Assembly: GCA_963711565.1 (NCBI GenBank)
Contig: CAVQEQ010000003.1
Coordinates: 736,001 to 800,000 of the forward strand
Source: an uncultured delta proteobacterium
Lineage (GTDB): Bacteria > Desulfobacterota > Binatia > Binatales > Binataceae
Length of the DNA: 64,000 bases
Direction of reading: 5' to 3'
Positions within the stretch are counted from its first letter, which is position 1; each line of letters opens with the position of its first letter. The notes beneath the pieces were generated by a model. That model saw only the letters and a list, made by a program, of their open reading frames with translations, ran no database searches and was not told where the DNA came from. Shown here one piece after another: positions 9,494-25,614 of this stretch. The position numbers were made by a program, and so were the translations under genes.

Positions 9494-11287
9494 TCAGTTA
9501 ACGAGACCGCCGTTGCCGGCCAGATCTTGAGGCGACATGAATTGCAGATCGTAGAGCTTTCGATACTCCTGACCGCGAGCAAACAGTTCGTCGTGCGTGC
9601 CGTCTTCGACGATCCGGCCGTGAACGACTACGACGATCCGGTCCGCGCGCCGCACGGTGGACAGCCGATGCGCGATCACCAGCGTCGTGCGGTTTTCCAT
9701 CAGATGCTCGAGCGCTTCCTGCACCGATCGTTCCGCGGCGGAGTCCAGCGACGAGGTTGCCTCATCGAGAATCAAAATCGGTGCGTCCTTGAGCAGCGCC
9801 CGCGCGATCGCGATTCGCTGCCGCTCCCCGCCTGAGATGCGCACGCCCAACTCACCGACCATCGTCTCGTAACCGTTGGGCAGCCGCGAGATGAAGTCGT
9901 GTGCGTTGGCGAGCTTGGCGGCCGCGATCACGCGCTCGAGTTTCTTGTCGCTGCTGCCGTATGCGATATTCGCGCGAATGGTATCGTCGAACAGAAAGGT
10001 ACTCTGCGTCACCAGGCCGATTTCCGCGCGCAGCGATTTGAGCCGCAACTTGCGCACGTCGATTCCATCGACCGTAATCTGTCCCAGCTGCACGTCGTAA
10101 AAGCGCGGGATCAGATCCGCCATCGTCGATTTGCCACCGCCACTCATCCCGACCAGAGCCACGACCTTGCCGACACCGATCTCGAGGTTGATGTCGTGCA
10201 GCACCCATTCGTCGCCATAACGGAAGCTCACGTTTTCAAACGCGACGCTATGCGGGCCTGGTTGCAGGTCGATTCCATTCGGATCGTCGGGGACCTCACT
10301 TGGCAGATCCATCATCTCGAAGACGCGCTCCGCGGCCCCCAGTCCCTGTTGGATCGTATTATTGGTCTTGCTGACGCTCTTGAACGGCGGGTATACGAGA
10401 ATCATGACCGCAAAGAAACCCGCGAACTGACCTAGCGTGCGCGTACCCGCCTGCAGCGATCCCACCGCCCACCAGACTACCGCGACCACCGCAAATGCGC
10501 CGAGCGCCTCGATCAGCGGTCCGGTGAACGCCTTGATTCTCGCGACCCGCATGAAGATTCTGAACAGCCGTTTGAGTTCCCGGTTAAAGCGCCCGCGCTC
10601 GTAATCTTCCATCCCGAACGCCTTCACAACACGGTTTCCTTGCAAAGTTTCAACCAGCAGCGACTGCAACCCGCTCAATTGTTTTTGCTGATTCTTGGTT
10701 TCCCGGCGGACTTTCTTGGAGAGACTCACGATCGGCAAGACCACGATCGGAAAACCGATGAACGCAACGATCGCGAGCCGCCAATCGATATGGAAGGCGA
10801 CTGCCAGCAACGCTATCAGCGACATCCCGTCGCCGACGATCGAAAAGACACCGTTGCTCAGACTCGATACCACCATGCCGACGTCGTTGATCACTCGCGA
10901 AACCATCACTCCCGTGGGCGTGCGGTTGAAAAAACTCAGCGATTGGCGCTGGAGGCTCTCGTTCAGATCGCCCCGGATGTCCATCGTCATCTTTTGGGCG
11001 ATGTACGCACTCAGGTAGTCGTCCGAAAAGTTGGCAAGCGCGCGAAACAAAAACAATCCCGCAAGCACCAGCGAGTATTCACGCAGCTTAAAGGCGCTGT
11101 GCGCATCGAGCTGATGGCGGACTCCAAGATTAGTGCCCAAATCGACCACAGCCTTCGTCAGGAGTGGCACGCCTCCAGTTGCGGCCGACAGGACACCCAT
11201 CGCGATGGCCAGCAGCAGCACGTAGGGAAACAAATATTTGCGGAGGTAACCGAACAGTCGCCACTGCATTGGGGTGAGCAGCTTCAT
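9494..11287 (-). CDS. msbA: Lipid A flippase ABC transporter
   Basis: TM domain plus Walker A GMSGGGKS, ISGGERQRIAIARA, ILDEATS and IAHRLST; lies between lpxB and waaA. Start ATG 11287. Confidence 0.92.
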   Translation of the reverse strand: MKLLTPMQWRLFGYLRKYLFPYVLLLAIAMGVLSAATGGVPLLTKAVVDLGTNLGVRHQLDAHSAFKLREYSLVLAGLFLFRALANFSDDYLSAYIAQKMTMDIRGDLNESLQRQSLSFFNRTPTGVMVSRVINDVGMVVSSLSNGVFSIVGDGMSLIALLAVAFHIDWRLAIVAFIGFPIVVLPIVSLSKKVRRETKNQQKQLSGLQSLLVETLQGNRVVKAFGMEDYERGRFNRELKRLFRIFMRVARIKAFTGPLIEALGAFAVVAVVWWAVGSLQAGTRTLGQFAGFFAVMILVYPPFKSVSKTNNTIQQGLGAAERVFEMMDLPSEVPDDPNGIDLQPGPHSVAFENVSFRYGDEWVLHDINLEIGVGKVVALVGMSGGGKSTMADLIPRFYDVQLGQITVDGIDVRKLRLKSLRAEIGLVTQSTFLFDDTIRANIAYGSSDKKLERVIAAAKLANAHDFISRLPNGYETMVGELGVRISGGERQRIAIARALLKDAPILILDEATSSLDSAAERSVQEALEHLMENRTTLVIAHRLSTVRRADRIVVVVHGRIVEDGTHDELFARGQEYRKLYDLQFMSPQDLAGNGGLVN

Positions 11288-12483
11288 GCGGCGCTCCTCG
11301 ACGCGATCATCTCGAGCGCGATCTTCGCGACGCGTCCGGCCGCGCCCGGCGAGCCGAGCTTCTCGCGCAACGCCTTCAGCGCCGCGACCGTCTCCGCACG
11401 GATGGTGTCGCTCAGCAGCGGCTCGGCGGCCCGCACCAGCTTCTCCACGGTCACCTCGCCCTGGATCAGTTCCGGCACGATCTGCCAGCCCGCCAGGATA
11501 TTCGGCATCCCGATAAAATCCACTCCCGTCACAAGCATCCGCCCTAGGATATAGGTTAGCCGCGACACTTTGTAGGCGATGACTTCGGGGCATCCGAGCA
11601 GCGCCGTCTCCAGGGTGGCGGTCCCCGACGCAACCAGCCCGAGCTCACTCGCCGCCACAATGTTGTAGGTATCGCTCTCGACAATCTTGATTCCTGACAG
11701 GTCCGCGCGTCCAACTTCGGCAAGTTCGGCCTGCGTCAGGGTCGGCGCCAGCGCGAGCGCTATCTGAAGATCGTGATCGCGCGCGACAATCCGCGCCGCC
11801 TTGACCATCGGCTCCAGCAGATATCGAACTTCGGCGCGGCGGCTGCCCGGCAGGATCGAAATGATTCGAGCGCGCGCCGGGAATCCGTGACGCTTAAGCG
11901 TCTCGTCCCGGCTCTGTACCGTCGCAACTCGATCGAGCAGCGGATGCCCGACGAATGAGACGCGCTCGCCCGCGCGATGAAACAGTTCGGCCTCGAACGG
12001 CAGTACCACCGCCAGCCGGTCCGCGCGATCGACCAGCTTGTCGATTCGGCCGCGACGCCACGCCCATACTTGCGGCGTGATGTAGTAGAGCACCGGCACG
12101 CCATTGCGGCGCGCGGTGCCCGAGAGAATCAGGTTGAACTCCGCGTAGTCAATCAGGATCACCAGGTCCGGCCGCTCGCGCCGGATGATTCGGCGCAGCG
12201 CGCGAAACGCGCCAACGGTGCGCCCAATCGTCGAGGCCAGTTCCGAAAGTCCGAGTCCGTGGATGTCCTCGGTCTTGACGATTGCGCGGACGCCGGCCGC
12301 GCGCATTTTCTCGCCCGCGATTCCGAACAGTTCGCACGACCGGTCGCGCGCGAGAATCTCCCGCGCCAGGTCGCCGCCATGAAGATCGCCCGACGCCTCG
12401 CCCGCAACGATCATGATGCGGCTCCGGTGTGCGGTTTCTCTCAGGCGCTCATCAAGCGGCGGCGCTTCAGCATTCAAGGGCAT
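11284..12483 (-). CDS. lpxB: Lipid-A-disaccharide synthase
   Basis: AGEASGDLHG, PQVWAWR, LPFE, VGHPL, LPGSR, SGTATLE and PELIQ motifs. Confidence 0.96.
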   Translation of the reverse strand: MPLNAEAPPLDERLRETAHRSRIMIVAGEASGDLHGGDLAREILARDRSCELFGIAGEKMRAAGVRAIVKTEDIHGLGLSELASTIGRTVGAFRALRRIIRRERPDLVILIDYAEFNLILSGTARRNGVPVLYYITPQVWAWRRGRIDKLVDRADRLAVVLPFEAELFHRAGERVSFVGHPLLDRVATVQSRDETLKRHGFPARARIISILPGSRRAEVRYLLEPMVKAARIVARDHDLQIALALAPTLTQAELAEVGRADLSGIKIVESDTYNIVAASELGLVASGTATLETALLGCPEVIAYKVSRLTYILGRMLVTGVDFIGMPNILAGWQIVPELIQGEVTVEKLVRAAEPLLSDTIRAETVAALKALREKLGSPGAAGRVAKIALEMIASRSAA

Positions 12484-12625
12484 CGAAGCGATTGTGATTG
12501 AAAAACGTGAAGCCGCAAATAGCCCTGCTGGTCCGATTGACCGGCATTTCCAGCTTCGGGCGCGCTCGCATGGGTGTGCGAGCGGTGGACCACGGCAATG
12601 CTCAAAAGGAAGGACTTATCGATAT

Positions 12626-13549
12626 CTATCGGCCGGTGAGGCCGCTGGCGTAGCGAAAGCTGCCCCGCCCGGCATCGATCGCGGACGCTTCGCGTGGCAC
12701 TGCGTCGGACCTCTTCCAATCCGAAAAATCGAGCTTGAGCAGCTCCTCGAGCGCCTCGACCTCAGGTAGATAGCGCTCGGCCAACATCGCTTTTTTCTCG
12801 GGCGAAAGTGCCGGAAATATCTCGCCGCGCCCGTTGCAAAAATCCCAGATACCGGTCCTTCCCATCGCTCTGATCAAGCCATAAGCGTGACGCCTCTTCA
12901 GCCGGTATCGGAGGTGCCGCGCATTCTGGGCGAGTTTGCGGCTTTTCGGCGCGCGCTCGATCGAATTGGCCCGCCGTTGCCCAGTGCCATCATCAGGAAT
13001 CGAGATTCGCGCCGTCCCAATAAAGTCGCACACCCGGTCCAGATAGTCCTGGGGATCGTCGCGCAGCTCTTCATAGCGCATGATCAAAAAGCGCTCGCGG
13101 TCGAAGTGATCAAACCATGCCCTCAGCTGCTTTGCGTAGCGGTTGCCGTCATCGATATTCGGGCGCTGGTTGAGCACTTCATCGAACGTTCCACGTACGA
13201 ACGCACCGCGTACCAGCATTTTGTAAGTCGAATAGGCATGCTCGACCGGATTGCGAAACGTCACGAGGAATTTGCAGTCTGGCAGATGGCGATGAATGCG
13301 CGCGGGCGCCTTCATCGTGTTGAAGTAGGGACAAATCTCCGCCACCTTGCGTTCGCCGGTCGCGTAGCGGAAATGGTGCTGGTACCATTCGATTCCCTTC
13401 GAATAGAAGGTGGTGAAGAACTGCGTCTCCTTGACTCCGTACGGTAGATCGACGTGACCCTTGAGCAGCCCATGCAGCCAGGTTGTACCGGTACGGGGAG
13501 GGCCGAGCCCGATGAAATCGGGCAACCTGGTGATGGAACCTGACGCCAT
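12626..13549 (-). CDS. PAPS-dependent sulfotransferase
   Basis: 5'-PSB loop PDFIGLGPPRTGTTWL, KETQFF, 3'-PB motif FRNPVEHAYS, YEEL. Confidence 0.88.
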   Translation of the reverse strand: MASGSITRLPDFIGLGPPRTGTTWLHGLLKGHVDLPYGVKETQFFTTFYSKGIEWYQHHFRYATGERKVAEICPYFNTMKAPARIHRHLPDCKFLVTFRNPVEHAYSTYKMLVRGAFVRGTFDEVLNQRPNIDDGNRYAKQLRAWFDHFDRERFLIMRYEELRDDPQDYLDRVCDFIGTARISIPDDGTGQRRANSIERAPKSRKLAQNARHLRYRLKRRHAYGLIRAMGRTGIWDFCNGRGEIFPALSPEKKAMLAERYLPEVEALEELLKLDFSDWKRSDAVPREASAIDAGRGSFRYASGLTGR

Positions 13550-13692
13550 AACGCAGTCCCCATTAGCAGGTAGTGGGCCTGCCCACCCGAATTAGGGTCA
13601 AACCTTTGATGGAGAGCCCCTCCACCTTTCGACGGATCGTTTGACGCTCCACTGCGATTTCGCCGATTGTTAACGGTGCTCAGGAGAGAACG

Positions 13693-14776
13693 ATGAAGAC
13701 ACTGGATCGCAACAATCTTGACCTGAACGTCGCCCTGGCGCGCGCTGCCTTGTCGGTACTTGTGCTCGTATCGTGGTACGTCGATCCGTCTTACGGTGGA
13801 TGGTTCTACATCGACGAAGCTTCGTTGATCATTCTGACCCTGCATCTCGCCTACAGCCTGACCGCGGTCGTACTTATCGACCGCGGTATCGCGCCCTCTC
13901 TGGTGCCGGCAGGCTGCACCGCTCTCGACATCGTGTTTGCCGGCGTGGTCACGATCGTGACCGAGGGGCCGACCAGCCCCTCCTGGCTGTTTTTTGTCTT
14001 CGCGATTATCGTGGTCGATTGCAGCACCAGCTTTCGCGCGGTGATGACGGTGACGATTTTCAGCTCGCTGGTGTATCTCGTGCTGCTGGCGGCTTTCGTC
14101 CCCGGCCCCGGAAACGAGTACCTGATGCGGGCCGCGTACCTCGCCATCATCGGCTACCTGATCGGGTTCGTTGGCGCGCAACGCGCAAAGTTCGAAGCGC
14201 GCGTGCGCGACCTCGAGGCGGCCGCCGAACGCCATGCGATCGCGCGCGCACTTCACGACGGCTACGTGCAGGTGTTGGGCGGTGCGAACCTTCGGCTCGA
14301 GACCTGCCGGAACCTGATGAAGACCGGGCGCTCCGCCGAGGCGCTGGCAAGGATCACCGACCTGCAGAAGGAACTGGCGCGGGAATACGACGGCGTGCGC
14401 GCCTATATCCGCTCGCTCGCGGACGTTCGAACAGATCCCGGAGTTCGAAGAACACCCGTTTGCGGTCGAAACACTTTTCGAGCTGACGGCAAATTTCGCG
14501 GGGCGCGCGCGGCTACTCGAGCAGGTTCTTCAGATCGTTCTCGAAGGAGTGCGAAATAGCTGGCAGCACGGCAGAGCGGCCTGCGCCGCGATCAACATCA
14601 GCGCCGCCGACCATCTGATCCGAATCGCGATTGACGACGACGGCGTCGGCATTCGCAATCCCGAGAATCCGCCGTGGGCAATCGCGTCGCGGGTTGCCGA
14701 ATTCGGCGGGCAGCTGAGAATCGGCGGCGCTGAGCGTCCAGGCGCTCATCTGGAAATCGAAATCCCGGCGGCATAG
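13693..14776 (+). pseudogene. Membrane sensor histidine kinase (HisKA_3), split by a +1 frameshift near 14426 (possibly a sequencing error)
   Basis: TM helices and H-box ARALHDGYVQ lie in the first frame. N-box EGVRNSWQH and G1 box DDDGVG continue in the shifted frame (...LADV/EQIPEFEE...). Confidence 0.8.
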
Positions 14777-14778
14777 CT

Positions 14779-15414
14779 ATGGCGAAGCGCCTGCGTTTAA
14801 TCATCGCCGACGACCACTCGATTTTTCGCCAGGGTCTGAAGGAGCTGCTGCTGCTGCAGCCCGACGTCGAAGTGGTCGGCGAAGTCGCGCGCTTCAGCGA
14901 TCTCGCATCGATGCTGACGACCACGTCTTGCGATGTGCTCCTGCTCGATCTGCAAATGGAACGCTGGGTGGGCGGCAATATCGAACGGCTCAGCCGGATC
15001 ACCCGCGTCGTCGTGTTGACCGCGAGCGAGCGCAAGGAAGACGCGATGGCGGCGCTGCGGATGGGCGCGCACGCGTTCGTGCAAAAACGTTACGCGGTGG
15101 AAACCCTGATGGAAGCGATCCGGTCCGCGGCGCGGGGGCTGGTGTGGATTCCTCCCGCATTGCAGGCGGAACTCGCCGCCCAGCTCCGATCGCCCGCAAG
15201 CCGCCAGCTCTCCGACCGCGAGACCGAGATCATCCGCTGTATCGGCTTGGGGCTGCGGAACGCGGAAGTCGCCCGCCGGCTCTCGATCGGCGAAAGTACG
15301 GTCAAGACACATCTCAACAACATCTTTCAGAAGCTCGGCATCCGCGACCGTGTCGAGCTGGCGCTCTACGCGCAACGTGTTGGACTGGCGGAAGGGCCGC
15401 GCGGCAAACGCTAG
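14779..15414 (+). CDS. NarL/LuxR-family response regulator
   Basis: Receiver IIADDH...LLDL...VLT...K followed by the LuxR HTH LSDRETE...STVKTHLNNIFQKLG. Confidence 0.94.
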   Translation: MAKRLRLIIADDHSIFRQGLKELLLLQPDVEVVGEVARFSDLASMLTTTSCDVLLLDLQMERWVGGNIERLSRITRVVVLTASERKEDAMAALRMGAHAFVQKRYAVETLMEAIRSAARGLVWIPPALQAELAAQLRSPASRQLSDRETEIIRCIGLGLRNAEVARRLSIGESTVKTHLNNIFQKLGIRDRVELALYAQRVGLAEGPRGKR

Positions 15415-15474
15415 TCCGAGTGCGATTGCTATTTGGGGCGTTTCGCTTTGCGCGCCAAAGTCATAAATCCGGTT

Positions 15475-15906
15475 TCAATTGTCTTGCTCGAAATTCCGCC
15501 GGATCGCATCGCGTATCTGATCGACCGGCGAGCCCTGCTCCGACATCCGCTTCGCCAGCAGCGCCTCGCCGGTGCAAATTTCGCACGACGAGCCGTGCAT
15601 CCCGCGGTAGCAATCGAGCAGGTTCTGATGGCCTTCCGCCTTGTCGCATCCGCAGTAGCAATGCAATTCCGCGAGCAGCGCGGGATTTTGCTCGGCAAAT
15701 TTGTATGCTTCCTTTACCGGACCGACGAACTGATTTGGATCGAGCGTCAAGCGCCCCTGCGTTCCATCTGCCGCGACGGTTTCCGCCGCCTCCGCCCGCC
15801 CCGCGCCGCGCGCGCTATTCACCGATGAACCGCCGAGCATCGGCCACAGGTATGCAAGCGCGGTAATCGCAGCGAACGAGGAGCCAAGAATTATAGTCCG
15901 TCTCAC
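15475..15906 (-). CDS. PCYCGC-motif family exported protein (copy A)
   Basis: N-terminal hydrophobic anchor, LHCYCGC, GHQNLLDCY, HGSSCEIC and IRDAI; GTG start. Confidence 0.82.
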   Translation of the reverse strand: MRRTIILGSSFAAITALAYLWPMLGGSSVNSARGAGRAEAAETVAADGTQGRLTLDPNQFVGPVKEAYKFAEQNPALLAELHCYCGCDKAEGHQNLLDCYRGMHGSSCEICTGEALLAKRMSEQGSPVDQIRDAIRRNFEQDN

Positions 15907-15972
15907 GCTGCACCACCCATGTTCAGTACGCCGTCAGCAATTGCAAATTCGCTCCGAGGTAAAACACGCTAC

Positions 15973-16839
15973 TCAATGCGGCGGCGGTGTATTGGCCAGC
16001 ACCACCGACCATCCAAGCACGACTGCCAACAGGACGCATTCCACGGCCACGTTTCGAACCAGCGTAGCACGGGCCGAAGATTCTCCGATCGATCCTACCA
16101 GCCGATATCGATTGTAGCCGCCAATCAGGATCACCGTGGCCGCCGTGCCGACCTTCCACAGCAGCGTCCGCCCGTAAAGCGAATTCACCAACAGATCGAG
16201 ATGCAATCCCAACGTATCCCACGCCCTGATCGCGCCGGTCACAATCAGTGCGGCGACTGACCATCCCGCGATCGTCGATACTCGCGACGTTGCCGACCGC
16301 AGCCAATCCGCACCGGCATGTCCGTAGGTCGCGCCTATCAACAGCGAGACCAGCGCGCCGATCCACATGCCCGCCGCGGCCTGATGCGCGAAATGAACGG
16401 AGATCGCAAATGCGCCTTTGTCGATCGCATGACTCGTTACGCTTTGCAGCGCGAGCAGAGCCGCCGAGATGGCGAATATCAGCGCCGTCGCAAGCCGCCC
16501 CGGCGCGGGAATCCAGGCCACCAGAGCCAACAGCAGCGCCGTCGCGAGTCTCCACGTCCATACCCGGCCGGCAAAAGTCTCGCGCATAATCTGCGGCATC
16601 ACCGGAATAACTTCTCTGAAGGTCGAATCCGCCATTCCCGCGCCGACGGACAAGAGTCTGAGCGGCGACATCACGACTACAATCAGAGCGAGCACTCGCC
16701 ACAGCGACGCCATGCTTCTGCTCCATCGTTCGCCGTCGGCGAGATCGCGCGGCGCCGCCACCAGCGCGAAAGCCGTAGTTCCGAATATCAGCACTTGCGA
16801 CCCTACCAACGGCCACGCGAAGATTGGCTGCGGGATCAC
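15973..16839 (-). CDS. copD: CopD family copper uptake membrane protein
   Basis: TSHA, HFAHQAAAGMWIGAL, TG, YGRTLLWK and NRYRL motifs. GTG start overlaps the copC stop (GTGA). Confidence 0.88.
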   Translation of the reverse strand: MIPQPIFAWPLVGSQVLIFGTTAFALVAAPRDLADGERWSRSMASLWRVLALIVVVMSPLRLLSVGAGMADSTFREVIPVMPQIMRETFAGRVWTWRLATALLLALVAWIPAPGRLATALIFAISAALLALQSVTSHAIDKGAFAISVHFAHQAAAGMWIGALVSLLIGATYGHAGADWLRSATSRVSTIAGWSVAALIVTGAIRAWDTLGLHLDLLVNSLYGRTLLWKVGTAATVILIGGYNRYRLVGSIGESSARATLVRNVAVECVLLAVVLGWSVVLANTPPPH

Positions 16840-17225
16840 GATCCGCCGTTTACGACCGAGAAGGTGTACGAACCGTTCGTGTGATGCGTGTCGATGCACA
16901 CGACCGCCCACTTGACTGTGTAGTCGCCGGGCTTCAGCGCGCCCAATTTGACCGACAACTGGATTCCGTCGTCGCTGACTTGCGGCGTTCCGACCGCCAG
17001 GTTCTGCCCGTCAGCGCCCGTCACTTCCAGCTTGGCGAACAGCTTCTCGATTGGTGCGTCGAATTTGATCGTCACCTCCGACGGCGCCGATCCTAGTGTC
17101 TGCCCCGCCTTCGGACTTTCCTCCTCGGGAAACGAATGCGCGGAGGCCGGAATCGGAATACTCACTACAATTGCCAGTAGCGCGGGAGCGAATAGCAACA
17201 TTTTTCGGACGTTCATGGTTCTCAT
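16836..17225 (-). CDS. copC: CopC periplasmic copper-binding protein
   Basis: Signal peptide ASA/H gives a mature His1. P..G, GDYTVKW and DTH..G.Y.F.V match the CopC pattern; adjacent to copD. Confidence 0.9.
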   Translation of the reverse strand: MRTMNVRKMLLFAPALLAIVVSIPIPASAHSFPEEESPKAGQTLGSAPSEVTIKFDAPIEKLFAKLEVTGADGQNLAVGTPQVSDDGIQLSVKLGALKPGDYTVKWAVVCIDTHHTNGSYTFSVVNGGS

Positions 17226-18136
17226 TCTCCGTACAACTTCCAGTTGCCTTGCGGAAATATCGAGTCGTAGAAAATATCCAACAGCCCGAGGATTGCCGCA
17301 TGATTGCCGGATACGCTTGCCTGGTTGAGCGCGAACTGGGTGCCGACGCTGAGTTCGAAACGGTAGCTGACGTACGCAATTCCAGGCGTCACCAGGATCG
17401 TCGGGAAGGTCTGGCCCGACGGTCCTTTCACCAGTTGGTTGTAGTTGAATTCATTGAACAGAAACAGATTGCGCAGCGGCCACTTGAGTCCGATGTCCTG
17501 CACGTTGTTGCTCAGGTACAGGAGCGAGTACTCGATCATCCCGTCGGCAAACATATTGTGACTGGTATGTCCGCCCAACGCGGGGATATAGCCGTAGTCA
17601 AACTGGAATCCAATCGGCCGCAGCCACTTCAGCAGCGTGGTGTTGGGCAAGTCGCCGAGCGCCTTCGCTCCGATCAATTCCGGGCCGAGGCTCGTATGCT
17701 GTTGGGACTGAACGGATGGATTGCCCGTGGGTAAATCCAGCACCGCCTTCGCCGACAAAATAAATTCATGTTGCGGAATGATTAGAAACGCATACTTGGC
17801 GAACAGTTCCAAATCGTCGAACCCGCTGACATTGGCCCCCTGCTTTGGCGATTGGTAGATCCAGGTCGAGCCGCCGCCGACGCTGAATCGCGGCAAGTTG
17901 TCGCTGTCGGTGCCGAGCAGTTTTTCGATTGACGAACCGATTGAGAAAGTGCGGCCACCGGAATTCCGGTTCCAGTCCGGCGCGACTATATCCGCCTCGT
18001 TGGCCGGAGTCGCGTCGTCGGTCACCAGCGGCTCCAGGAATATGTAATCCCCTACGACTCCGTGCGCGTACACTGCGCTCGCGCGCAGCGCGATCACTGC
18101 TATCAAAGCTAACACAAGACTTTTCCGCATTATCAT
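17222..18136 (-). CDS. Putative outer-membrane beta-barrel (COG4313/MetA-pathway-like) with mature N-terminal His
   Basis: Signal peptide AVYA/HGVVG, amphipathic strands and GFDDLELFAKY...LDLPTG. Stop overlaps the copC ATG. Confidence 0.6.
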   Translation of the reverse strand: MIMRKSLVLALIAVIALRASAVYAHGVVGDYIFLEPLVTDDATPANEADIVAPDWNRNSGGRTFSIGSSIEKLLGTDSDNLPRFSVGGGSTWIYQSPKQGANVSGFDDLELFAKYAFLIIPQHEFILSAKAVLDLPTGNPSVQSQQHTSLGPELIGAKALGDLPNTTLLKWLRPIGFQFDYGYIPALGGHTSHNMFADGMIEYSLLYLSNNVQDIGLKWPLRNLFLFNEFNYNQLVKGPSGQTFPTILVTPGIAYVSYRFELSVGTQFALNQASVSGNHAAILGLLDIFYDSIFPQGNWKLYGE

Positions 18137-18200
18137 TCATCACGGCCGCGAGGGCCGCATCCTCTACTGGTATAAATTGGGTTAAATTGAGTTTCGTGAT

Positions 18201-18665
18201 CTATGGTTCCGTGACTGCGACGCGCACGGACCGGTCGGCAAGCGAGCGTAAATAGACGAACAGCGCGCTCGCGAACAACACCGCGTCCAACGCGAGCTCG
18301 ATCCACATTCTCGGACGTGATGGAGCGCCGGCGCCGAAACAGCCGCAGTCGAGTGTGAGACCTCGCAGCAGCGCCGACGCCAACGCCGTGAAAAATACCG
18401 CGGAGAGCAGAACGACGGCGATCGCCCCTACCCGCCTGGTCCGCGGCCCGAGCAACAAGAGCCCGCATGCGATCTCGAATGGCGGCAGACCCAGCGCGAG
18501 CAAGTTGATGAACACCGCCGGCAGGATCCCAAACGCCGCGATGCTGTCGGCGAATTGCAGCGGGTCGCGCAACTTGTCGATGCCCGCATAGATGAATACC
18601 GCCGCCATCGCCAGGCTCACCGCAAGCAGCACGTAGCGAAGACGCGGGTTGTCCGATGCCATCAT
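18201..18665 (-). CDS. MauE/DoxX family membrane protein
   Basis: FIYAGIDKL.DP..F, LPPFEIACGLLL and RGLTLDCGCFG (MauE CGCFG motif). ATG overlaps the rhodanese stop. Confidence 0.88.
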   Translation of the reverse strand: MMASDNPRLRYVLLAVSLAMAAVFIYAGIDKLRDPLQFADSIAAFGILPAVFINLLALGLPPFEIACGLLLLGPRTRRVGAIAVVLLSAVFFTALASALLRGLTLDCGCFGAGAPSRPRMWIELALDAVLFASALFVYLRSLADRSVRVAVTEP

Positions 18666-19249
18666 TTTCCGCTCCCTGTCGATGCCGGCAGTCCTGCCGC
18701 CGACCATGCTTCCCACCCGCCGGTGAAGACGCTGACATTGCTGAAGCCGAGACTCAGCAACGCGTTTGCGACGAGGCGGCTGTCATGACACTCGCCACCG
18801 GAGCAGTACACGATAACCCGCTTGTCGGTGGCAGCTTGCAACACGCCGGAGAGACTCCGATAGTCGTGCGCGAAGTCATCTCGCGCGAGATTCAACGCTC
18901 CCGGCACGTGCCCCTGCTCGAAGAAAACCGACGGCCGCGCATCAAGGATGAGAGCGCTCTTGTTGTCAACGGCTGAACGGAATTCATCGAGTCCGATCGT
19001 TGCGGCGGGCGCGATCTTGAACGGCGGCGCCGCGACCAGGGTCGTCAGCTCGGCATCGAACCTTTGCTCCGGCGTCTGAAAGACCATCGGAAGTGGCGCC
19101 GGGTAATAGCGGTTCATCGCGAGTCCAGCGGCAAGGGACGCTGCTGCGAGTACTGCAACAACGCCGAGATCGCGAACAAGCTGCGAGCCGAGGCTCCTCG
19201 CTCGACGCGCCGGATCGTGGGTGGTTATCGACGAGACTGCTGAAGTCAT
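18662..19249 (-). CDS. Membrane-anchored rhodanese-like protein
   Basis: LDARP..F..GHVPGALN, active-site loop VYCSGGECHDS and FTGGWEAW, preceded by an N-terminal TM helix. Start uncertain (19249-19300). Confidence 0.88.
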   Translation of the reverse strand: MTSAVSSITTHDPARRARSLGSQLVRDLGVVAVLAAASLAAGLAMNRYYPAPLPMVFQTPEQRFDAELTTLVAAPPFKIAPAATIGLDEFRSAVDNKSALILDARPSVFFEQGHVPGALNLARDDFAHDYRSLSGVLQAATDKRVIVYCSGGECHDSRLVANALLSLGFSNVSVFTGGWEAWSAAGLPASTGSGK

Positions 19250-19259
19250 ATCTGTGTGA

Positions 19260-19862
19260 TCAGCTGGCCGGACGGCTGCCGGCTGACGCATCTCCATCAA
19301 GGACTCGTTGCAAATGACTGGCAGGAGATTCGTGCCCGGCGTGGCCGTCGTGGCCGGTACTCAGGGCGCAGGCCGGCGCGGCGCTGGTATGTGGCGGCTT
19401 GAAGTCCGACGGGACCAAACGCTCGCGCGCCGCCCATCGGTCGAAATTGCCGGGATTGCTCGCCAGCACGCGAAATCGCATGCAGACGGTGTCACAGCCA
19501 CAGCCGGAATCGCAATTTCCGTAGAGCTCACCCGGTGACTTGAGGATCAGATCGAGCGGGCGCGTCTTGCCGGGCAGGATGCTTACCGCATCCTTCATCC
19601 CGAGAATCCAGAAGCTGTGGATCACATCGGCGGAAGCAAGCTCGAGCCGGACGTTCGTGTCGCTGGGCAGGTACAAAACATTGCTGGTCTTGATGCCGAG
19701 AGTCGGGTAGTCGAATTCCCACCACCACTGATGCGCGACCGCTTTGACCGTCAGTTCAGGCCGGGTCGCGCCACCGCCGACGGCTCGCGCGAGAAAGAGC
19801 GCTGCTGCACAGACGCACGCCAGACCGACCATCGCTCCGACCAATGTTCGTGACGACTTCAA
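19260..19862 (-). CDS. Stand-alone CoxII-like cupredoxin with a non-canonical CuA loop
   Basis: AHQWWWEFDY, LYLP, LASADVIHSFWI, PG and YGNCDSGCGCDTVCM, with one N-terminal hydrophobic segment. Start is TTG 19862 (overlaps the sco stop) or ATG 19832. Confidence 0.8.
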   Translation of the reverse strand: MKSSRTLVGAMVGLACVCAAALFLARAVGGGATRPELTVKAVAHQWWWEFDYPTLGIKTSNVLYLPSDTNVRLELASADVIHSFWILGMKDAVSILPGKTRPLDLILKSPGELYGNCDSGCGCDTVCMRFRVLASNPGNFDRWAARERLVPSDFKPPHTSAAPACALSTGHDGHAGHESPASHLQRVLDGDASAGSRPAS

Positions 19863-20557
19863 GCATGAGCCTCGTGAAGGGTCGCCGCGATGATCGCGCC
19901 GTTGCCGGCCGCCACCGGCTCGTTCGCCACGGCTCGCTCCACGTCGCTCGCAACGCGATCCGGCTCGGCCTTTTCTCCCATGTACTGCAGCAATGCCTTG
20001 CCATTCGCGTCGACCAGGAAGAACTCGAGAACGTGATCGACCGTACCGTCGGCTTCGTGCTGCCGAATCAAGTCGAATCGCGCCAGCACATCGTCGATCT
20101 GCTTTGGCGTGCCGGTAAGGAACAGCCATCCGTTAACGTCAGCGCCCTGAGCCTTCGCGTAGGCGTTTAGCTGCGCGGGGTGATCGTGTTCGGGATCGAC
20201 CGTTATCGACACGATGCGCGCTTCCGTTCCAAGCTTGGGCCCGAGTCGATCGGCGATCTGTTTCATCCGGCTCGTCAGGACAAGACACGGTCCGGGACAG
20301 CTGGTGTAAATGAAATCGAACAGCACCGGTTTGCCTTTCAGCGACGCCAGCGAGACCTTCTTGCCGTTCTGATCGAGCAACGTGATGTCGGGCAGGCAGT
20401 CGGAGGTATTGCGCACCTCGAACCCTCCGCGCTCGCCGATATTTTCCTCCGGCTGGCGGCAACCAGTTAGAACCTTCGCGCCCGCGAAAACAACCAGCAT
20501 CGTCAGAAATAAGCTCTTCCCGATCGACAAAACGGTTCTCGTGGATTGCATCACCAT
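19859..20557 (-). CDS. SCO1/SenC family copper chaperone (copy 2)
   Basis: DQNG, FIYTSCPGPC (CxxxC), ITVDPEHD, WLFLTG and the conserved His in VDHV. Confidence 0.92.
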   Translation of the reverse strand: MVMQSTRTVLSIGKSLFLTMLVVFAGAKVLTGCRQPEENIGERGGFEVRNTSDCLPDITLLDQNGKKVSLASLKGKPVLFDFIYTSCPGPCLVLTSRMKQIADRLGPKLGTEARIVSITVDPEHDHPAQLNAYAKAQGADVNGWLFLTGTPKQIDDVLARFDLIRQHEADGTVDHVLEFFLVDANGKALLQYMGEKAEPDRVASDVERAVANEPVAAGNGAIIAATLHEAHA

Positions 20558-20560
20558 TTT

Positions 20561-21016
20561 TCAATTGTCCCCGGCGTATTGTCTGCGGAGCGCATCGCGT
20601 ATCTGCTCGACCGGCGAGCCCTGCTCCGACAGTTGCTCCGCCGTCAGCGCCTCGCCGAGGCAGATTGCGCACACCGAGGCGTGGGTGCCTCGGTAACAAT
20701 CGAGCAGATTCCTATGGCCGTACGTCTTGTCGCATCCGCAGTAGCAATGCAGTTGAGCCAGCAGCGCGGGGTTCTTCTTCGCAACCTCGTACGCCTGCTT
20801 TACCGGCCCGACGAACTGGTTGGGATCGAGTGTCACGCGCTCGGGCGCCGCGTTGGCCGCGAGAGTCTCGGCCTCCGCCCGTGCGGTGCAGCAGCAATGA
20901 CCCAGGATGCACATCGCGCCACGCTCAGTTGACGAAGCGCCGAAAGTCGGCAGCCACAGGTATGCCAGCGTCAGGATCGCCGCAATCGAGGAGCCCAAAA
21001 TGATTGCTCGTCGCAT
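20561..21016 (-). CDS. PCYCGC-motif family exported protein (copy B, with a Cys/His-rich insert)
   Basis: LHCYCGC, GHRNLLDCY and HASVCAIC; paralog of 15475..15906. Alternative start 21034. Confidence 0.82.
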   Translation of the reverse strand: MRRAIILGSSIAAILTLAYLWLPTFGASSTERGAMCILGHCCCTARAEAETLAANAAPERVTLDPNQFVGPVKQAYEVAKKNPALLAQLHCYCGCDKTYGHRNLLDCYRGTHASVCAICLGEALTAEQLSEQGSPVEQIRDALRRQYAGDN

Positions 21017-21026
21017 GCTGTGTCTC

Positions 21027-21620
21027 TCAACCATTGTTCAGAGTTTTCTTAACGTCATCGACGATGTCCTGGGCCTTGACGATCTCGCCGTTGTACTCGC
21101 GCACCAGCCGCCCGTCGGGCCCGACCAGCATCATGTTGACTAGGTGACCAACCGATCCGTCCGGCTCGACTTCACGGCTGAGCTTGAACCCCGCCAGCGC
21201 CTGATCGATATCCGCCGGGCCGCCCGTCAGGAAATACCAGCCTTTCTCGTCCGCCCCTTGCTGGCGCGAGTAATTGAGTAACTGCTTGGGGCCGTCATGC
21301 TCGGGATCGACGCTGATCGAAACGAGCGTCACCTTGGAGCCGAGATCGCTGCCCAGCCGCAGCGCGACGTTCGCAAACTTCGCCGTCTCCATCAGGCACG
21401 GTCCGGGGCATGACGTGTAGATGAAATCCACTACCAGCGGCTTGCCCTTGAGCGACGAGAGCTCGACCGTGTTGCCGTTCTGATCGACGAGCTTGGTGTC
21501 GGTTAGAACACTGGCGGTGCTGTTCGCGGTTGAGCCGCCATGACATCCCGCAACCGAACACAAGCTCAACGTCGCGACCAGCGCGATTGCGAGAGATCTG
21601 AGATTAGAACGAATACGCAT
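21027..21620 (-). CDS. SCO1/SenC family lipoprotein (copy 1)
   Basis: Lipobox VAGC, FIYTSCPGPC, SVDPEHD, WYFLTG and VGH. Start ATG 21620. Confidence 0.92.
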   Translation of the reverse strand: MRIRSNLRSLAIALVATLSLCSVAGCHGGSTANSTASVLTDTKLVDQNGNTVELSSLKGKPLVVDFIYTSCPGPCLMETAKFANVALRLGSDLGSKVTLVSISVDPEHDGPKQLLNYSRQQGADEKGWYFLTGGPADIDQALAGFKLSREVEPDGSVGHLVNMMLVGPDGRLVREYNGEIVKAQDIVDDVKKTLNNG

Positions 21621-21698
21621 ATCTGTATCCCTCTGGTAAGTGCGATTCTCTAGTTGCCGATTAGGCACTGATACCTATCTCTTTTACTCTTCCCCGCC

Positions 21699-21780
21699 TC
21701 AGAAACCGTAACTCAGAATCAGCTTGCCCGCGAAGCCGCGTCCTGCACTCGCGAGCCATCAGGCTCTCGCGAGCAATCAT
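21699..21780 (-). pseudogene. Remnant of an outer-membrane (TonB-dependent-like) receptor: start codon fused out of frame to the C-terminal beta-signal
   Basis: Minus strand 21746..21699 reads AGRGFAGKLILSYGF-stop, a terminal amphipathic strand ending YxF. An out-of-frame ATG lies at 21780. Confidence 0.45.
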
Positions 21781-21808
21781 TCTTGCGCGAAAATTTGAAA
21801 CTAATGCG

Positions 21809-22129
21809 CTAGCTGAACAGCTTGGGCGGAGGCGGATCGGGAGCTTCGGCGAGTTTACTCTTCAGGATAGGTTCGAATTGAGCGAGGCTCTCGTGCGAAA
21901 GAACTCTCGCGTCGATGCCGGGCTGCGCGGGGCGCGCGATCTGCACGATGCCCGGCGCGCTGTCGAGCGCTTGCAGGGGATGACAGATGTCCATCGAGAT
22001 AGTCGGCCCCGAGCGATCGGCAATGATAATCACGCCGAGCGACGGCAGAGTCGCCATCATCATGATGAACGCCATCGCAGCGGCCAGTTGCCGCATAAAA
22101 GCGCGATCGATTGTCATCGCGGTTGCCAT
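21809..22129 (-). CDS. Small leader-like protein with signal/TM segment, CH motif and C-terminal PDPPPP (DUF2946/CruR-like architecture)
   Basis: Met-rich hydrophobic N-terminus, ICHP and the tail LAEAPDPPPPKLFS. Confidence 0.6.
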   Translation of the reverse strand: MATAMTIDRAFMRQLAAAMAFIMMMATLPSLGVIIIADRSGPTISMDICHPLQALDSAPGIVQIARPAQPGIDARVLSHESLAQFEPILKSKLAEAPDPPPPKLFS

Positions 22130-22131
22130 GG

Positions 22132-22578
22132 TCAGAAGAGCGCGCGTCCACCTTTCAAATCCGCAGTTTTGATCCGCACGACTCCCGCATCTTCCTCATG
22201 CTGCAGGCTGACGGGCACACACGACGCCTTGCCCTCAGTCATCTGATCAACCGGATAGTGATTGCCGCAGACCCGGCAAATCAATTCGCCGTCAACCACG
22301 CGGTAGCCGCTGTGGTACGCCGAACACTGGCGGCATGCGTCGAACACCGAGCGCACTTTGCCGTCGTTGCCGCGCGCGAGCACGAAGCGCAGCCGCTTGC
22401 CGGCGTCGTCGGTGTAGCAGAAAACCCGCGCAATCCCGGGACGCAGCGCGGACACGTTGACGGCCACGTCGTCGATGCCGCTCACGGTTGTGCAGTTTGA
22501 GGTCGCGGTGAAGATGAGAAACGCGGCACCCGCCGCGAGCACCAGCCCGCCGAGAATCCTGAACTTGCCCGCACCCAT
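22132..22578 (-). CDS. DUF2318 / FtrD-like membrane-anchored Fe-S (Rieske-like) protein
   Basis: FDACRQC, GY, ICRVCG and CVPV motifs, with an N-terminal TM helix. Confidence 0.85.
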   Translation of the reverse strand: MGAGKFRILGGLVLAAGAAFLIFTATSNCTTVSGIDDVAVNVSALRPGIARVFCYTDDAGKRLRFVLARGNDGKVRSVFDACRQCSAYHSGYRVVDGELICRVCGNHYPVDQMTEGKASCVPVSLQHEEDAGVVRIKTADLKGGRALF

Positions 22579-22587
22579 GACGGCTCA

Positions 22588-22616
22588 ATGCTGTCGCAGC
22601 GGAGCGCGAGCGTCAA
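22588..22616 (-). promoter_or_regulatory. Possible sigma70 promoter for the copper operon
   Basis: Minus strand TTGACG-N17-CAGCAT ends 9 nt before ATG 22578. The -10 element is weak. Confidence 0.35.
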
Positions 22617-23561
22617 GGTGCGACCGAGTCCGTCAGCATCACTTGTTTGATCCTCTCGGTCAGATCCATCACGCGAAGTCCGTCGTCGGCGCTGACCGCC
22701 GGCGTCGATCTGCCGCGAACCGCCGCCACGAAAGACTTGACCTCGTCGGCCAGCGGGTCGCCTTCGCCGAACTCGATCTGTTCCGCCAAAATCGTCGGGA
22801 ACTGCGCGCCACGCGCCGGCGGAGTTTTGCGATACATCTGGATGCTGCGCGCCTCGTAGTCGACCGAGATGTACGCGTCGGGCTGAAAGAAGCGAATCTT
22901 GCGCTCGCGGCGAGCCGACACGCGACTAGTCACCAGATTCGCGATTAGACCGCTCTGGAAGCGGATGCGCGCGTTGGCGAGGTCGATTCGATCGGTAAGG
23001 ATCGCGACGCCGACCGCCTCCAGCGACGCGACTTCCGACGGCGCCAGCGACAGGATCACGTCGAGATCGTGCACCATCAGATCGAGCACCACGTCCACGT
23101 CGGTGCCGCGCTCGGTGAACGGCGCGAGCCGATGGCATTCGACGAAGCGCGGATTTTTCACGATCGAATGCAGATGCACGACCGCCGGATTGAACCGCTC
23201 GAGATGGCCGATCTGAAGAATGCGCGCGCTCGACGACGCCAGCCCGGCCAGGTCGCGCGCCTGCGCCAGCGTTTCCGCCATCGGTTTTTCCAGCAGCACG
23301 TCGATGCTCGCTGTCAGCATCGCGGACGCGATCTCATGATGGGTCACGCCGGGCGACGCAATCGTCACCAAGTCGATCTTACCCGCCAGCGCGCGGTAGT
23401 CGGTTAGCGCCGTCGCGCCAACTTCGGTCGCCAGCGCGCGCGCCCGCTCAACGTCGAGATCGACGATGTGCGCGAGCTTGATGCCCGCGATTGCGGCGTA
23501 CTTGCGCGCGTGCAGAGTGCCGCAGGCCCGCGCCAATGACCGCGGCACGCAGCTCAGCCAT
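22613..23561 (-). pseudogene. Gfo/Idh/MocA oxidoreductase (GnnA-like), frameshifted in the Rossmann GxGxxG near 23522 (possibly a sequencing error)
   Basis: MAELRAAVIGAG, then a frame change to GTLHARKY...EKPM...GHLERFNP...DVVLDLMVHDLD. Length 949 nt is not a multiple of 3. Confidence 0.82.
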
Positions 23562-24369
23562 TGGCTTCCGCATAGCCGTAAATCGTCACGTCTTTCGCGC
23601 GTGCGAGTTCGAGTGTGCGATCGCGTTCGAGAATCAGCGCGACTCCGGCTTCGACGCCGATCATCGCGGCGCCGATTTCGGCCAGCAGATCCACCGTGGC
23701 CGGACCAATCGCCGGCCGATCGAAGCGCAGGTCCTGTCCGGGCTTCGCCGCCTTGGCGATCACCAACCCCGCGCCGACCAGCGCGGCCGCGCGGCGCAGA
23801 GCGGCATCCGTTCCTTCCAGTGCTTCCACGGCGGCGACCATTCCGTCGCGGACCGCGACCGTCTGGCCGATATCGTAGGCGCCGAGTCGGCGCGCAACCG
23901 CGAATGCGAGATCGAGATCGCGCATTCGAGCGGGAGTCGGATCGGGACCGGCGCCGACGCCGGCGCGCGCGATCCAATGCTCGATCATCGGCACCGGATC
24001 GATCATCTTGATGCCTTCGCTTTCGACTTCGCGCGCGACGCCGCGCAGCACGGCGTCGTCGCTGAAGCGCCCGATGTTCGCGAGCATCTTGAGCGCGCGT
24101 GCGTCCGGTGCGAACGAGTCTTTCAGCCGCGCGCGTGAGATGCCGCCCGCCATCGCAGCTTCCGACACGCCGGCGTTTTTGAACACGTCGATTATCTTCT
24201 GCAGCTCGCCGACTTTGATCCATGTGACTTCGCCGGCGATTGAGTCGAGCGCCCGATCGCTTTCATTGAGGTGTGCGACGGCGATGATTTTTATTCCGCG
24301 CGTGCGTGCGGCGCGCGCTACTTCGAGCGGGAAGACGCCGTTGCCCGCGATTAGCCCGAGCTTATTCAC
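23554..24369 (-). CDS. lpxI: UDP-2,3-diacylglucosamine diphosphatase LpxI
   Basis: LGLIAGNG.FP, DIGQTV, AVEALEGTD and KPGQDLRFDRPAIG; directly after lpxA. Confidence 0.93.
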   Translation of the reverse strand: MNKLGLIAGNGVFPLEVARAARTRGIKIIAVAHLNESDRALDSIAGEVTWIKVGELQKIIDVFKNAGVSEAAMAGGISRARLKDSFAPDARALKMLANIGRFSDDAVLRGVAREVESEGIKMIDPVPMIEHWIARAGVGAGPDPTPARMRDLDLAFAVARRLGAYDIGQTVAVRDGMVAAVEALEGTDAALRRAAALVGAGLVIAKAAKPGQDLRFDRPAIGPATVDLLAEIGAAMIGVEAGVALILERDRTLELARAKDVTIYGYAEANG

Positions 24370-25156
24370 GCTCGCGGCCAACGACTCCGCGCTTAGAGTT
24401 GTTGATGAAATCGACCAGGCGCCGCACCTCGGCGAGGTCGCCGTATTCCTCGAGCGTCTTCGCGATCGCGTCCTCGCGCAGCAGCTTGGAGAAGAACAAC
24501 GTACGAATCGCCGACTTCAGCGCCGCGATCGTCTCGGGCTTGAAGCCGCGCCGCTGCAGGCCGACCTCGTTGACGCCCGCCAGCCGTGCGCGCTCGCTGC
24601 CCGCTACCATCGAGTAGGGCGGCACGTCCTGCGCGACCTTGGCGCCGGCGGCGACGATCGCGTGAGTGCCGATGCGCGTGAACTGATGCACGCCGACCTG
24701 GCCCTCGCAAATCGCGTAATCTTCGATCAGGCAGTGGCCAGCCAGCCCGGTGGACGCCGCCAGGATCACGTGGTCGCCGATGATGCAGTCGTGCGCGACG
24801 TGCGCGTAAGTCATTATCAGCGTGTGACTGCCGAGTTTTGTCAGCATTCCGCCGCCTTCGGTGCCGCGGTGGATCGTTGCGAACTCGCGAATCATGTTGT
24901 CGTCGCCGATTTCGACGACCGATGGTTCGCCCTTGAATTTCAGATCCTGGGGTTCCGCGCCGATCGCCGCGAACTGCCAGATGCGATTGCGCTGGCCGAT
25001 GGTGGTGTTGCGCTCGATCACCGCGCTCGCGCCGATCGCCGTGCCCGCGCCAATCTTAACGCCCGGTCCGATGACCGCGCCCGGACCGACTTCGACGCTC
25101 GTGTCGAGCTCGGCGCGTTTGTCGATGACCGCGGAGGAATGGATTTTTCCCGCTAT
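24362..25156 (-). CDS. lpxA: UDP-GlcNAc O-acyltransferase
   Basis: Hexapeptide repeats, PQDLKF, IREFATIHRGT, HVAHDC, VHQF and QDVPPY. The apparent start is ATA 25156. Confidence 0.95.
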   Translation of the reverse strand: MAGKIHSSAVIDKRAELDTSVEVGPGAVIGPGVKIGAGTAIGASAVIERNTTIGQRNRIWQFAAIGAEPQDLKFKGEPSVVEIGDDNMIREFATIHRGTEGGGMLTKLGSHTLIMTYAHVAHDCIIGDHVILAASTGLAGHCLIEDYAICEGQVGVHQFTRIGTHAIVAAGAKVAQDVPPYSMVAGSERARLAGVNEVGLQRRGFKPETIAALKSAIRTLFFSKLLREDAIAKTLEEYGDLAEVRRLVDFINNSKRGVVGRERE

Positions 25157-25614
25157 CGAACTTGCTCCTCGACTTCCATCGCGGACAATTCCGCCTCGGC
25201 CGCCAGCTCGTCGCCGACGTGCGCCTCCGCATGCATTCGCCACAGCGGACGATGAAACTTCGATATTTTTACTTCCATCCGCAGCTGATCGCCCGGGATA
25301 ACGCGGCGCCGAAAGCGCACTTTGTCCAATCCCGTCAGCATGAACAGCCGCGTCGGGTCACCGCCCACTTCGTTGAGTGCCAGGATTGCCGCCGACTGCG
25401 CGAGCGCTTCGACGATTAACACCCCCGGCATCACCGGGTGCCCGGGGAAGTGCCCGGCGAAGTACGGCTCGTTGAAGGTGACGTTTTTGATCGTTACGAC
25501 GCGGCCCTTGGTCAGTTCGATGATGCGATCGACCAGCAGAAATGGATAGCGATGGGGCAGCAGCCCCAGCACGCGCTCGAGCTCCGAGACTTTCGTTTCG
25601 TGGTCGTCAGGCAC
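25153..25614 (-). CDS. fabZ: 3-hydroxyacyl-ACP dehydratase
   Basis: LPHRYPFLLVD, NEPYFAGHFP and PVMPGVLIVEALAQ motifs. Confidence 0.96.
   Translation of the reverse strand: MPDDHETKVSELERVLGLLPHRYPFLLVDRIIELTKGRVVTIKNVTFNEPYFAGHFPGHPVMPGVLIVEALAQSAAILALNEVGGDPTRLFMLTGLDKVRFRRRVIPGDQLRMEVKISKFHRPLWRMHAEAHVGDELAAEAELSAMEVEEQVR

Follow-up and report, generated by a model that had tools for sequence, protein, structure and literature searches.

The open reading frame of 106 residues at 21809..22129 (minus strand) of the window, by which the whole 64,000-nucleotide stretch of Binataceae DNA analysed here is meant, probably acts in cis as a copper arrest leader of the CutF/CruR type, a reading for which sequence comparison suggests a probability of roughly 0.6. 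The frame is a real, well-conserved gene. That it is an arrest leader of some kind is very probable, and copper would, given an arrest leader, be the probable signal. A preliminary description of this DNA had proposed a metal-responsive stalling leader resembling CruR, which is supported by the spacing of the conserved residues, the position of the stop codon, the divergent linker and a slot shared with DUF2946 genes, whereas the motifs and the start site that it named did not hold. Since copper arrest leaders of the CutF/CruR kind are known already, what is new is most likely a lineage-specific form with a single cysteine.

The leader gene

The leader and its parts are given below; counts out of 60 refer to 60 distinct genomic leaders, from which L025 and one copy in L050 were left out as frameshifted or truncated.

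21809..22129, minus strand: leader ORF of 106 aa (P0001), predicted cis-acting arrest peptide, from sequence and family conservation
22019..22093, minus strand: hydrophobic export segment (signal peptide or signal anchor), residues 13-37, from hydropathy
21980..21985, minus strand: Cys49 (invariant) and His50 (38/60 leaders), from the alignment
21929..21937, minus strand: ARP motif, residues 65-67, in 50/60 leaders and lost in distant genera
21821..21841, minus strand: PDPPPPK, residues 97-103, predicted stall site, with PxxPPP in 60/60 leaders

The frame of 106 aa, its Met-rich segment, the ICHP motif (residues 48-51) and the C-terminal APDPPPPK (the last residues being APDPPPPKLFS) are all present as first described, and the hydrophobic segment reaches its best 19-residue hydropathy, 2.2, near residue 18. 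The linker was called low-complexity, which does not agree with a 12-residue entropy of at least 2.45 bits in all 16 linker segments computed; it is variable and holds the conserved ARP. Of the 3,589 long frames in this genome, 3 end in PxxPPP, which is the chance level, and PxxPPP[KR] ends 4 of 42,558 frames; the rarity of such endings among the genome's frames argues that the leader ORF is more than a product of chance. Over 18 orthologs, a dN/dS of 0.34 points to purifying selection on the whole ORF (0.16 in the Cys region, 0.34 in the linker), and the +1 frame contains four to seven stops in each ortholog. The PDPPPPK stretch, which has C-rich codons, showed a pN of 0 and a pS of 0.16 versus a pS of 0.38 for the whole ORF. 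Searches of Pfam, NCBIfam and PDB sequences with the leader matched no family, and the Atlas structure model of the leader was poorly folded (pTM 0.24).

Copper cluster and gene context

The genes of the cluster are listed in their order on the minus strand, in which the leader stands between the first and the second.

22132..22578, minus strand: ftrD-like (PF10080) gene, ending 2 nt before the leader ATG
21027..21620, minus strand: SCO1/SenC gene, first gene after the leader here, its start (21620) lying 188 nt past the leader stop
20561..21034, minus strand: PCYCGC-motif protein
19859..20557, minus strand: second SCO1/SenC gene
19260..19838, minus strand: COX2 periplasmic-domain protein, start approximate
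18662..19300, minus strand: rhodanese-like protein, start approximate
18201..18662, minus strand: MauE/DoxX membrane protein
17222..18136, minus strand: HGVVG-type exported protein, likely an outer-membrane barrel, no Pfam match
16836..17225, minus strand: copC
15973..16911, minus strand: copD, start approximate
15475..15906, minus strand: second PCYCGC-motif protein, end of the cluster

The leader had been placed at the head of the copper genes, a position that is in fact taken by the ftrD-like gene. The gene directly upstream of the leader was SCO in 26 and ftrD-like in 20 of the 60 loci (46/60 together), so the leader is usually internal and not the head of its cluster; an ftrD-like gene was found within 1.5 kb upstream in 45/60. 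Downstream, the first gene encoded an ACACGC-type barrel in 33 loci, an HGVVG-type protein in 21, a YHS-like protein in three, a TonB-dependent receptor in two and SCO in one, the source genome. In total, 57/60 of these genes encode barrels, TonB receptors or SCO, all exported. The gap from leader to next gene is usually about 90-125 nt and at most 200 nt in 59/60; at the remaining locus, a TonB receptor gene lies a few hundred nucleotides downstream. The downstream partner changes 14 times on the tree, in which many forks are unresolved (minimum possible 4; shuffled mean 22.7), and such repeated change of partner is as expected for a portable cis element.

The ACACGC protein was modelled (pLDDT 77) as a 12-stranded barrel whose nearest known structures are the COG4313 channel and FapF (PDB 4RL8 and 5O65; TM-score 0.65-0.71), which it resembles in the predicted barrel and C-terminal Phe and from which it differs by an identity of 11-15% and an N-terminal CxCxC. 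This CxCxC is invariant and directly follows the signal peptide in the ACACGC channel (L002:1922-2914) and its relatives, and distant homologues are annotated merely as transporter, lipoprotein or hypothetical protein. Because the HGVVG structure model was unusable (pLDDT 39), the presumed barrel fold of that protein rests on context. A long frame elsewhere in the genome ends in a distant paralogue of the C-terminal part of HGVVG, with 31% identity (G000:C3:424440-425003).

In its wider setting, the copper cluster interrupts a lipid A operon (11284-25243 of the window), between lpxA-lpxI plus one further conserved gene and lpxB; these we take to be lpxA, lpxI and lpxB as recognised from their translations and not from the family scan. 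Of the 14 main loci of the genus, most share this lpx insertion site, with varying gene content, and 10/14 have lpxB on the same strand at most 75 nt past the cluster. In the window, a HisKA_3 sensor-like gene (13693-15414, plus strand) and a LuxR-type response regulator gene (12626-13549, minus strand), together with one further gene, separate the copper cluster from lpxB; most relatives do not have these genes there.

Distribution and conserved features of the family

By single-sequence search, the leader was detected in 34/36 genomes of the same genus and in none of 24 others, and a family profile found it in 33/36 genomes of Binataceae, representing 13 genera when that of the source genome is counted, and in 0/214 searched genomes from other families. 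Clustering at 90% gave 481 proteins of the family and clustering at 50% gave 152, and its named homologues belong to Candidatus Binatus and Binataceae, the latter being uncultured soil bacteria. Several genomes carry two or three leader copies (L049, L050, L047, L048, L037 and L040), among which tandem modules of an ftrD-like gene plus leader stand before different genes.

All 60 leaders have one invariant Cys and the C-terminal PxxPPP, separated, from Cys to last Pro, by 52 (n=27), 53 (n=32) or 54 (n=1) residues; the invariant Cys of the source leader lies 53 residues before the prolines of PDPPPPK. The stop follows four codons past the last Pro in 55/60 leaders and three to five codons past it in 59/60. 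An acidic residue follows the first Pro of PxxPPP in 59/60, and Lys or Arg follows PPP in 57/60. Every leader also has a hydrophobic N-terminal segment (19-residue hydropathy of at least 1.6), which may be an uncleaved anchor. The residue after the Cys is His in 38/60, Gln in 19, Arg in two and Gly in one, most Gln and Arg forms falling in one supported clade, so that 21 independent losses of His are not implied. Some leaders of this C-Q clade follow a ZIP metal transporter gene and not an ftrD-like or SCO gene (L028:1875-2621).

The homologs thus keep the Cys, the PPP and their spacing of 52-54 while most linker columns fall below 50% conservation, as had been anticipated; the adjacent His, also expected to be conserved, is not. 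With His in 38/60 and PPPP in only 31/60 leaders, CH and PPPP were rejected as the defining motifs of the family, the invariants being one Cys and P-x-x-P-P-P. Among 150 distant representatives, the tail was present in 126, and the spacing was 52-54 in 106 of the 116 with both motifs. The family profile itself contains the Cys and Pro motifs, which biases these conservation counts upward; spacing and gene context are less exposed to this effect.

Comparison with CruR and CutF

CruR of Bordetella pertussis (Bp2923, DUF2946/PF11162) is described in PMC9426467 as a leader with CxxC and RAPP acting with Rho, and its published positions C90 and P142 give a spacing of 52; its arrest in vitro is reported in PMC12992588. 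CruR and the Binataceae leader are alike in the ruler from Cys to last Pro (52 versus 52-54), a stop few codons past the prolines, a long gap, a C-rich 3' end, and outer-membrane uptake genes with SCO/CopC downstream. They differ in that the Binataceae leader has no CxxC, RAPP or PF11162 match and is usually not the first gene of its cluster.

The same slot is held by DUF2946 genes elsewhere. Nine plasmid records carry a homologue of HGVVG, and in four of the six inspected a CxxC/RAPP leader lies 98-121 nt upstream. The HGVVG homologues of Paraburkholderia, Caballeronia and Burkholderia are preceded by an annotated DUF2946 gene at 106, 102 and 98 nt, respectively, and have copC or copD behind them, and DUF2946 genes thus take in Burkholderiaceae the place before the same barrel that the leader takes in Binataceae. 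These three plasmid leaders were confirmed as DUF2946 by Pfam (positive controls, 1e-15). A plasmid of Methylocystis rosea has barrel-copC-copD genes preceded, at 121 nt, by a CxxC/RAPP leader frame that is not annotated (L101:2121-2609). From first Cys to last Pro, the spacing is 52 in all four DUF2946-type plasmid leaders. No leader was found before the HGVVG homologue at the Nitrobacter and Cupriavidus plasmid loci, or at a Verrucomicrobia locus with an ACACGC barrel homologue.

By sequence, the Binataceae leader is not a DUF2946 member. PF11162 matched 0/97 members of the leader family at E 0.1 and was found in only 2/61 Binataceae genomes, and profile-profile comparison (hhalign) of the leader with the four DUF2946-type leaders gave a probability of 0.4%. 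CxxC occurs near the invariant Cys in 0/60 leaders and anywhere in 2/150 distant matches, and C-terminal RAPP in 0/60. The nearest named clusters by language-model features were of the DUF2946 type (0.92), which serves as a lead only. The common slot and spacing therefore suggest that the leader is likely an arrest leader of the CutF/CruR type, in the absence of detectable homology. The source genome also has a second, CruR-like leader of 112 aa (G000:C1:1131017-1131355; L118:2518-2856) with a hydrophobic N-terminus, CPVC, a C-terminal RAPP and a spacing of 51, located 108 nt before the gene for an 800-aa TonB-dependent receptor and scoring below the DUF2946 profile level.

The proline run in place of RAPP, proposed in the preliminary description, is no new substitute, since stalling on prolines has been published for CutF, a copper leader of Rhodobacter capsulatus. 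In CutF (PMC9973294; bioRxiv 10.1101/2025.02.05.636593), the ribosome stalls on the PPP of the tail PEPEGPPPRL, CxxxC and the signal sequence are needed, EF-P is a modulator, and the nascent chain is reckoned to need about 30 residues to pass the ribosome tunnel and 17 to cross the membrane. A survey in PMC9973294 collected 5,334 CutF-like proteins and describes some leaders as not copper-specific; a single-Cys form may exist among its 29 published clusters. Compared rule by rule, its criteria fit the Binataceae leader apart from the SignalP call of a cleavable Sec or lipoprotein signal peptide: a length below 150 aa (101-112 aa in the leader copies listed) and PP within the last 15 residues (60/60 leaders). 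The Cys/His motif of two or more ligands, CxxxC in CutF, is missing, there being one invariant Cys with an adjacent His in 38/60.

The leader tail matches the P-E-G-P-P-P-R-L of CutF; CutF, however, is described as having CxxxC plus further Cys with proposed disulfides, whereas the Binataceae leader has one Cys only. CutF is also described as activating a detoxifying oxidase through the melting of a stem-loop that covers the Shine-Dalgarno sequence, whereas in Binataceae two hairpins and a distance of about 100 nt separate the leader from the next start, and the target genes resemble those for uptake and delivery. A literature search of titles and abstract beginnings found no paper on the Binataceae leader.

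Intergenic region and a deleted channel gene

Behind the leader, the following elements were identified.

21748..21773, minus strand: hairpin 1 of the intergenic region, conserved in the genus (90% of cells paired, two cells changed on both sides)
21661..21780, minus strand: frame of 39 codons from ATG 21780, likely not a gene, not conserved
21735..21739, minus strand: GCGGC junction, at which the left arm of the second conserved hairpin is fused to the 3' end of a deleted channel gene
21699..21734, minus strand: remnant of an ACACGC-type outer-membrane channel gene (last 11 codons and stop), from blastn to the barrel 3' ends of relatives

The 28-nt gap between the leader stop and ATG 21780 and the hairpin at 21748-21773 are exactly as previously described, and yet they do not form the controlled start site. 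The ATG does not start a copper gene; it has no Shine-Dalgarno sequence, and an ATG at about the same place occurs in 15/27 relatives examined with frames of 11-291 codons, which indicates that it is not a conserved gene; it was rejected as the controlled start, the next real gene, SCO, starting at 21620.

Gaps downstream of the leader fold better than shuffled sequences (mean z -1.41; z of -2 or lower in 16/55), the window segment 21610-21860 folds no better than shuffles (z -0.52), and the covariation of the hairpin is weak, resting on the two cells changed on both sides. RNAalifold suggested that the Pro codons pair over a long range with the beginning of the following gene, a pairing that was rejected as it showed no covariation. 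With a ribosome footprint placed on the prolines, the computed opening cost of the downstream start falls by a median of 1.3 kcal/mol in 55 relatives (at least 1 kcal/mol in 30/55), the effect being about zero for footprints shifted by -66, -33 or +33 nt; for the SCO start of the source genome it is 0.1 kcal/mol. C exceeds G around the leader stop in 60/60 leaders, which is partly forced by the Pro codons. Rfam gave no match at E 1 over 20500-23000, and thus no known riboswitch is present there; sigma-70 consensus scans of the coding strand found no promoter before or inside the cluster, and no intrinsic terminator was found after the leader. Both Rho and EF-P are encoded in the genome. One RNA run yielded a 176-nt contig over 21729-21904, which alone cannot show expression.

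Past the leader stop, the gap matches the leader-side sequence of relatives to about 21735 and then the ACACGC barrel 3' end, which has the GCGGC at the join in common with the second hairpin. A tblastn search of the source genome detected no intact ACACGC barrel gene. Deletion of the channel gene explains why SCO comes next after the leader here; the SCO gene present between the ftrD-like gene and the leader in 12/14 main loci of the genus is missing in this genome. Among 47 genomes of the genus, 13 others match one half of the junction stretch and none spans the junction. An assembly artefact as the cause of the deletion was rejected on the basis of junction-spanning contigs from three DNA runs of three studies, of which one run may be the source sample. 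One such contig from another study is about 91% identical to the window, and the differences listed include none in the last eight leader codons.

Proposed mechanism

By analogy with CutF and CruR, co-translational export, pausing at PPP and metal binding at the Cys may be inferred. The hydrophobic segment would engage the translocon during synthesis of the leader, the ribosome would, by the tunnel and membrane lengths reckoned for CutF, pause on PDPPPPK as Cys49 emerges at the periplasmic side of the translocon, and copper at Cys49 would set the length of the pause and hence the expression of the genes behind, the first of which in relatives is the outer-membrane channel. Targets that look like uptake and delivery genes, together with the slot shared with CruR, favour a logic in which low copper means a pause and genes on, and copper means release and genes off. 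At low copper, the paused ribosome would cover the C-rich end of the ORF and keep Rho off, so that the channel, chaperone and CopCD genes are made, and it may also free the downstream ribosome-binding site; copper would relieve the pause and turn the genes off, as with CruR.

Polarity by Rho is favoured over hairpin melting because the start lies about 100 nt past the stall, C exceeds G in 60/60, the pS at the prolines is reduced (0.16 versus 0.38), and Rho and EF-P are present. On the other hand, with lpxB at most 75 nt past the cluster in 10/14 loci, operon-wide termination by Rho would need an internal promoter, none of which was found by the consensus scan, and the lowered opening cost of the start under the footprint (median 1.3 kcal/mol) fits translational control and argues against Rho polarity. 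As the channel gene is deleted in the source genome, the leader would control the SCO-PCYCGC-SCO-COX2-rhodanese-MauE-barrel-copCD genes only if its output is transcriptional.

Alternative explanations

Several observations weigh against a copper arrest leader. A lone Cys cannot chelate copper by itself, and His50 is missing in 22/60; the motif conservation is inflated by a profile containing the motifs; the excess of C over G is partly forced by Pro codons, and hairpin covariation is weak. The leader closely follows an SCO or ftrD-like gene in 46/60, whereas CruR heads its operon, and barrels also occur without a leader (2/6 plasmid loci and the Verrucomicrobia locus). An arrest leader might instead use its lone Cys to read periplasmic thiol-redox state or export load, similar to SecM, and thereby tune channel synthesis. 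This appears unlikely; it would agree with a single Cys and no CxxC in 60/60 leaders, with a cluster rich in genes for thioredoxin-fold SCO, rhodanese and MauE/DoxX proteins, and with a location inside the lpxA-lpxB envelope operon before genes whose products are exported in 57/60 cases, but copper-type DUF2946 leaders use the same slot and spacing, and the neighbours are copC, copD, SCO and COX2 and not Sec or Dsb components. Sensing of zinc, nickel, cobalt or iron, or of different metals by the C-H and C-Q clades, is quite unlikely when the window cluster contains copC, copD, two SCO genes and a COX2 domain and the plasmid barrel homologues sit with copC/copD. The ftrD-like Fe-S gene within 1.5 kb upstream in 45/60 speaks for it, as do the leaders described as not copper-specific in the CutF survey (PMC9973294) and the ZIP gene upstream at some C-Q loci, owing to which the metal may differ. 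It may also be proposed, very tentatively, that the family is an independently evolved single-thiol arrest class with a 52-53-residue ruler convergent with that of CruR, in which the nascent Cys would read the loading of the ftrD-like or SCO partner and not free metal, either completing a site with the protein encoded upstream or taking copper or a disulfide from it.

The leader could also be an ordinary small membrane-anchored protein that works in trans, with SCO or FtrD, for instance, as its thiol partner, and whose proline tail is structural. Purifying selection over the whole ORF (dN/dS 0.34), the conserved ARP in the linker, and an internal position abutting SCO or ftrD-like genes in 46/60 are what such a protein might show; even so it is improbable, as length and spacing are fixed while the linker is free, the stop comes three to five codons past the prolines in 59/60, a structured gap of about 100 nt follows, DUF2946 leaders take the slot elsewhere, and the leader model is poorly folded (pTM 0.24). 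Compatible with any of these readings, it is possible, though doubtful, that in the source genome the leader is an orphan that has lost its target and the second hairpin and controls nothing, in line with a footprint effect of only 0.1 kcal/mol for the SCO start versus the median of 1.3 kcal/mol in 55 relatives. Against this, all motifs are intact, the contig of about 91% identity from another study has the same junction without a listed difference in the last eight codons, and the SCO operon would still be subject to Rho-type polarity.

Implications

The natural deletion in the source genome separates the two possible outputs of the leader, since any control that it still has over the SCO operon could come only from transcriptional polarity. 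As a minimal natural version with one Cys and PPP, in which no intrachain disulfide is possible and the CruR spacing occurs without detectable homology, the leader could put the ruler and disulfide models directly to the test, and with them the way in which metal in the periplasm acts on stalling within the ribosome in CutF and CruR. In addition, the leader family singles out, as likely copper channels, two families of outer-membrane proteins that have no annotation.
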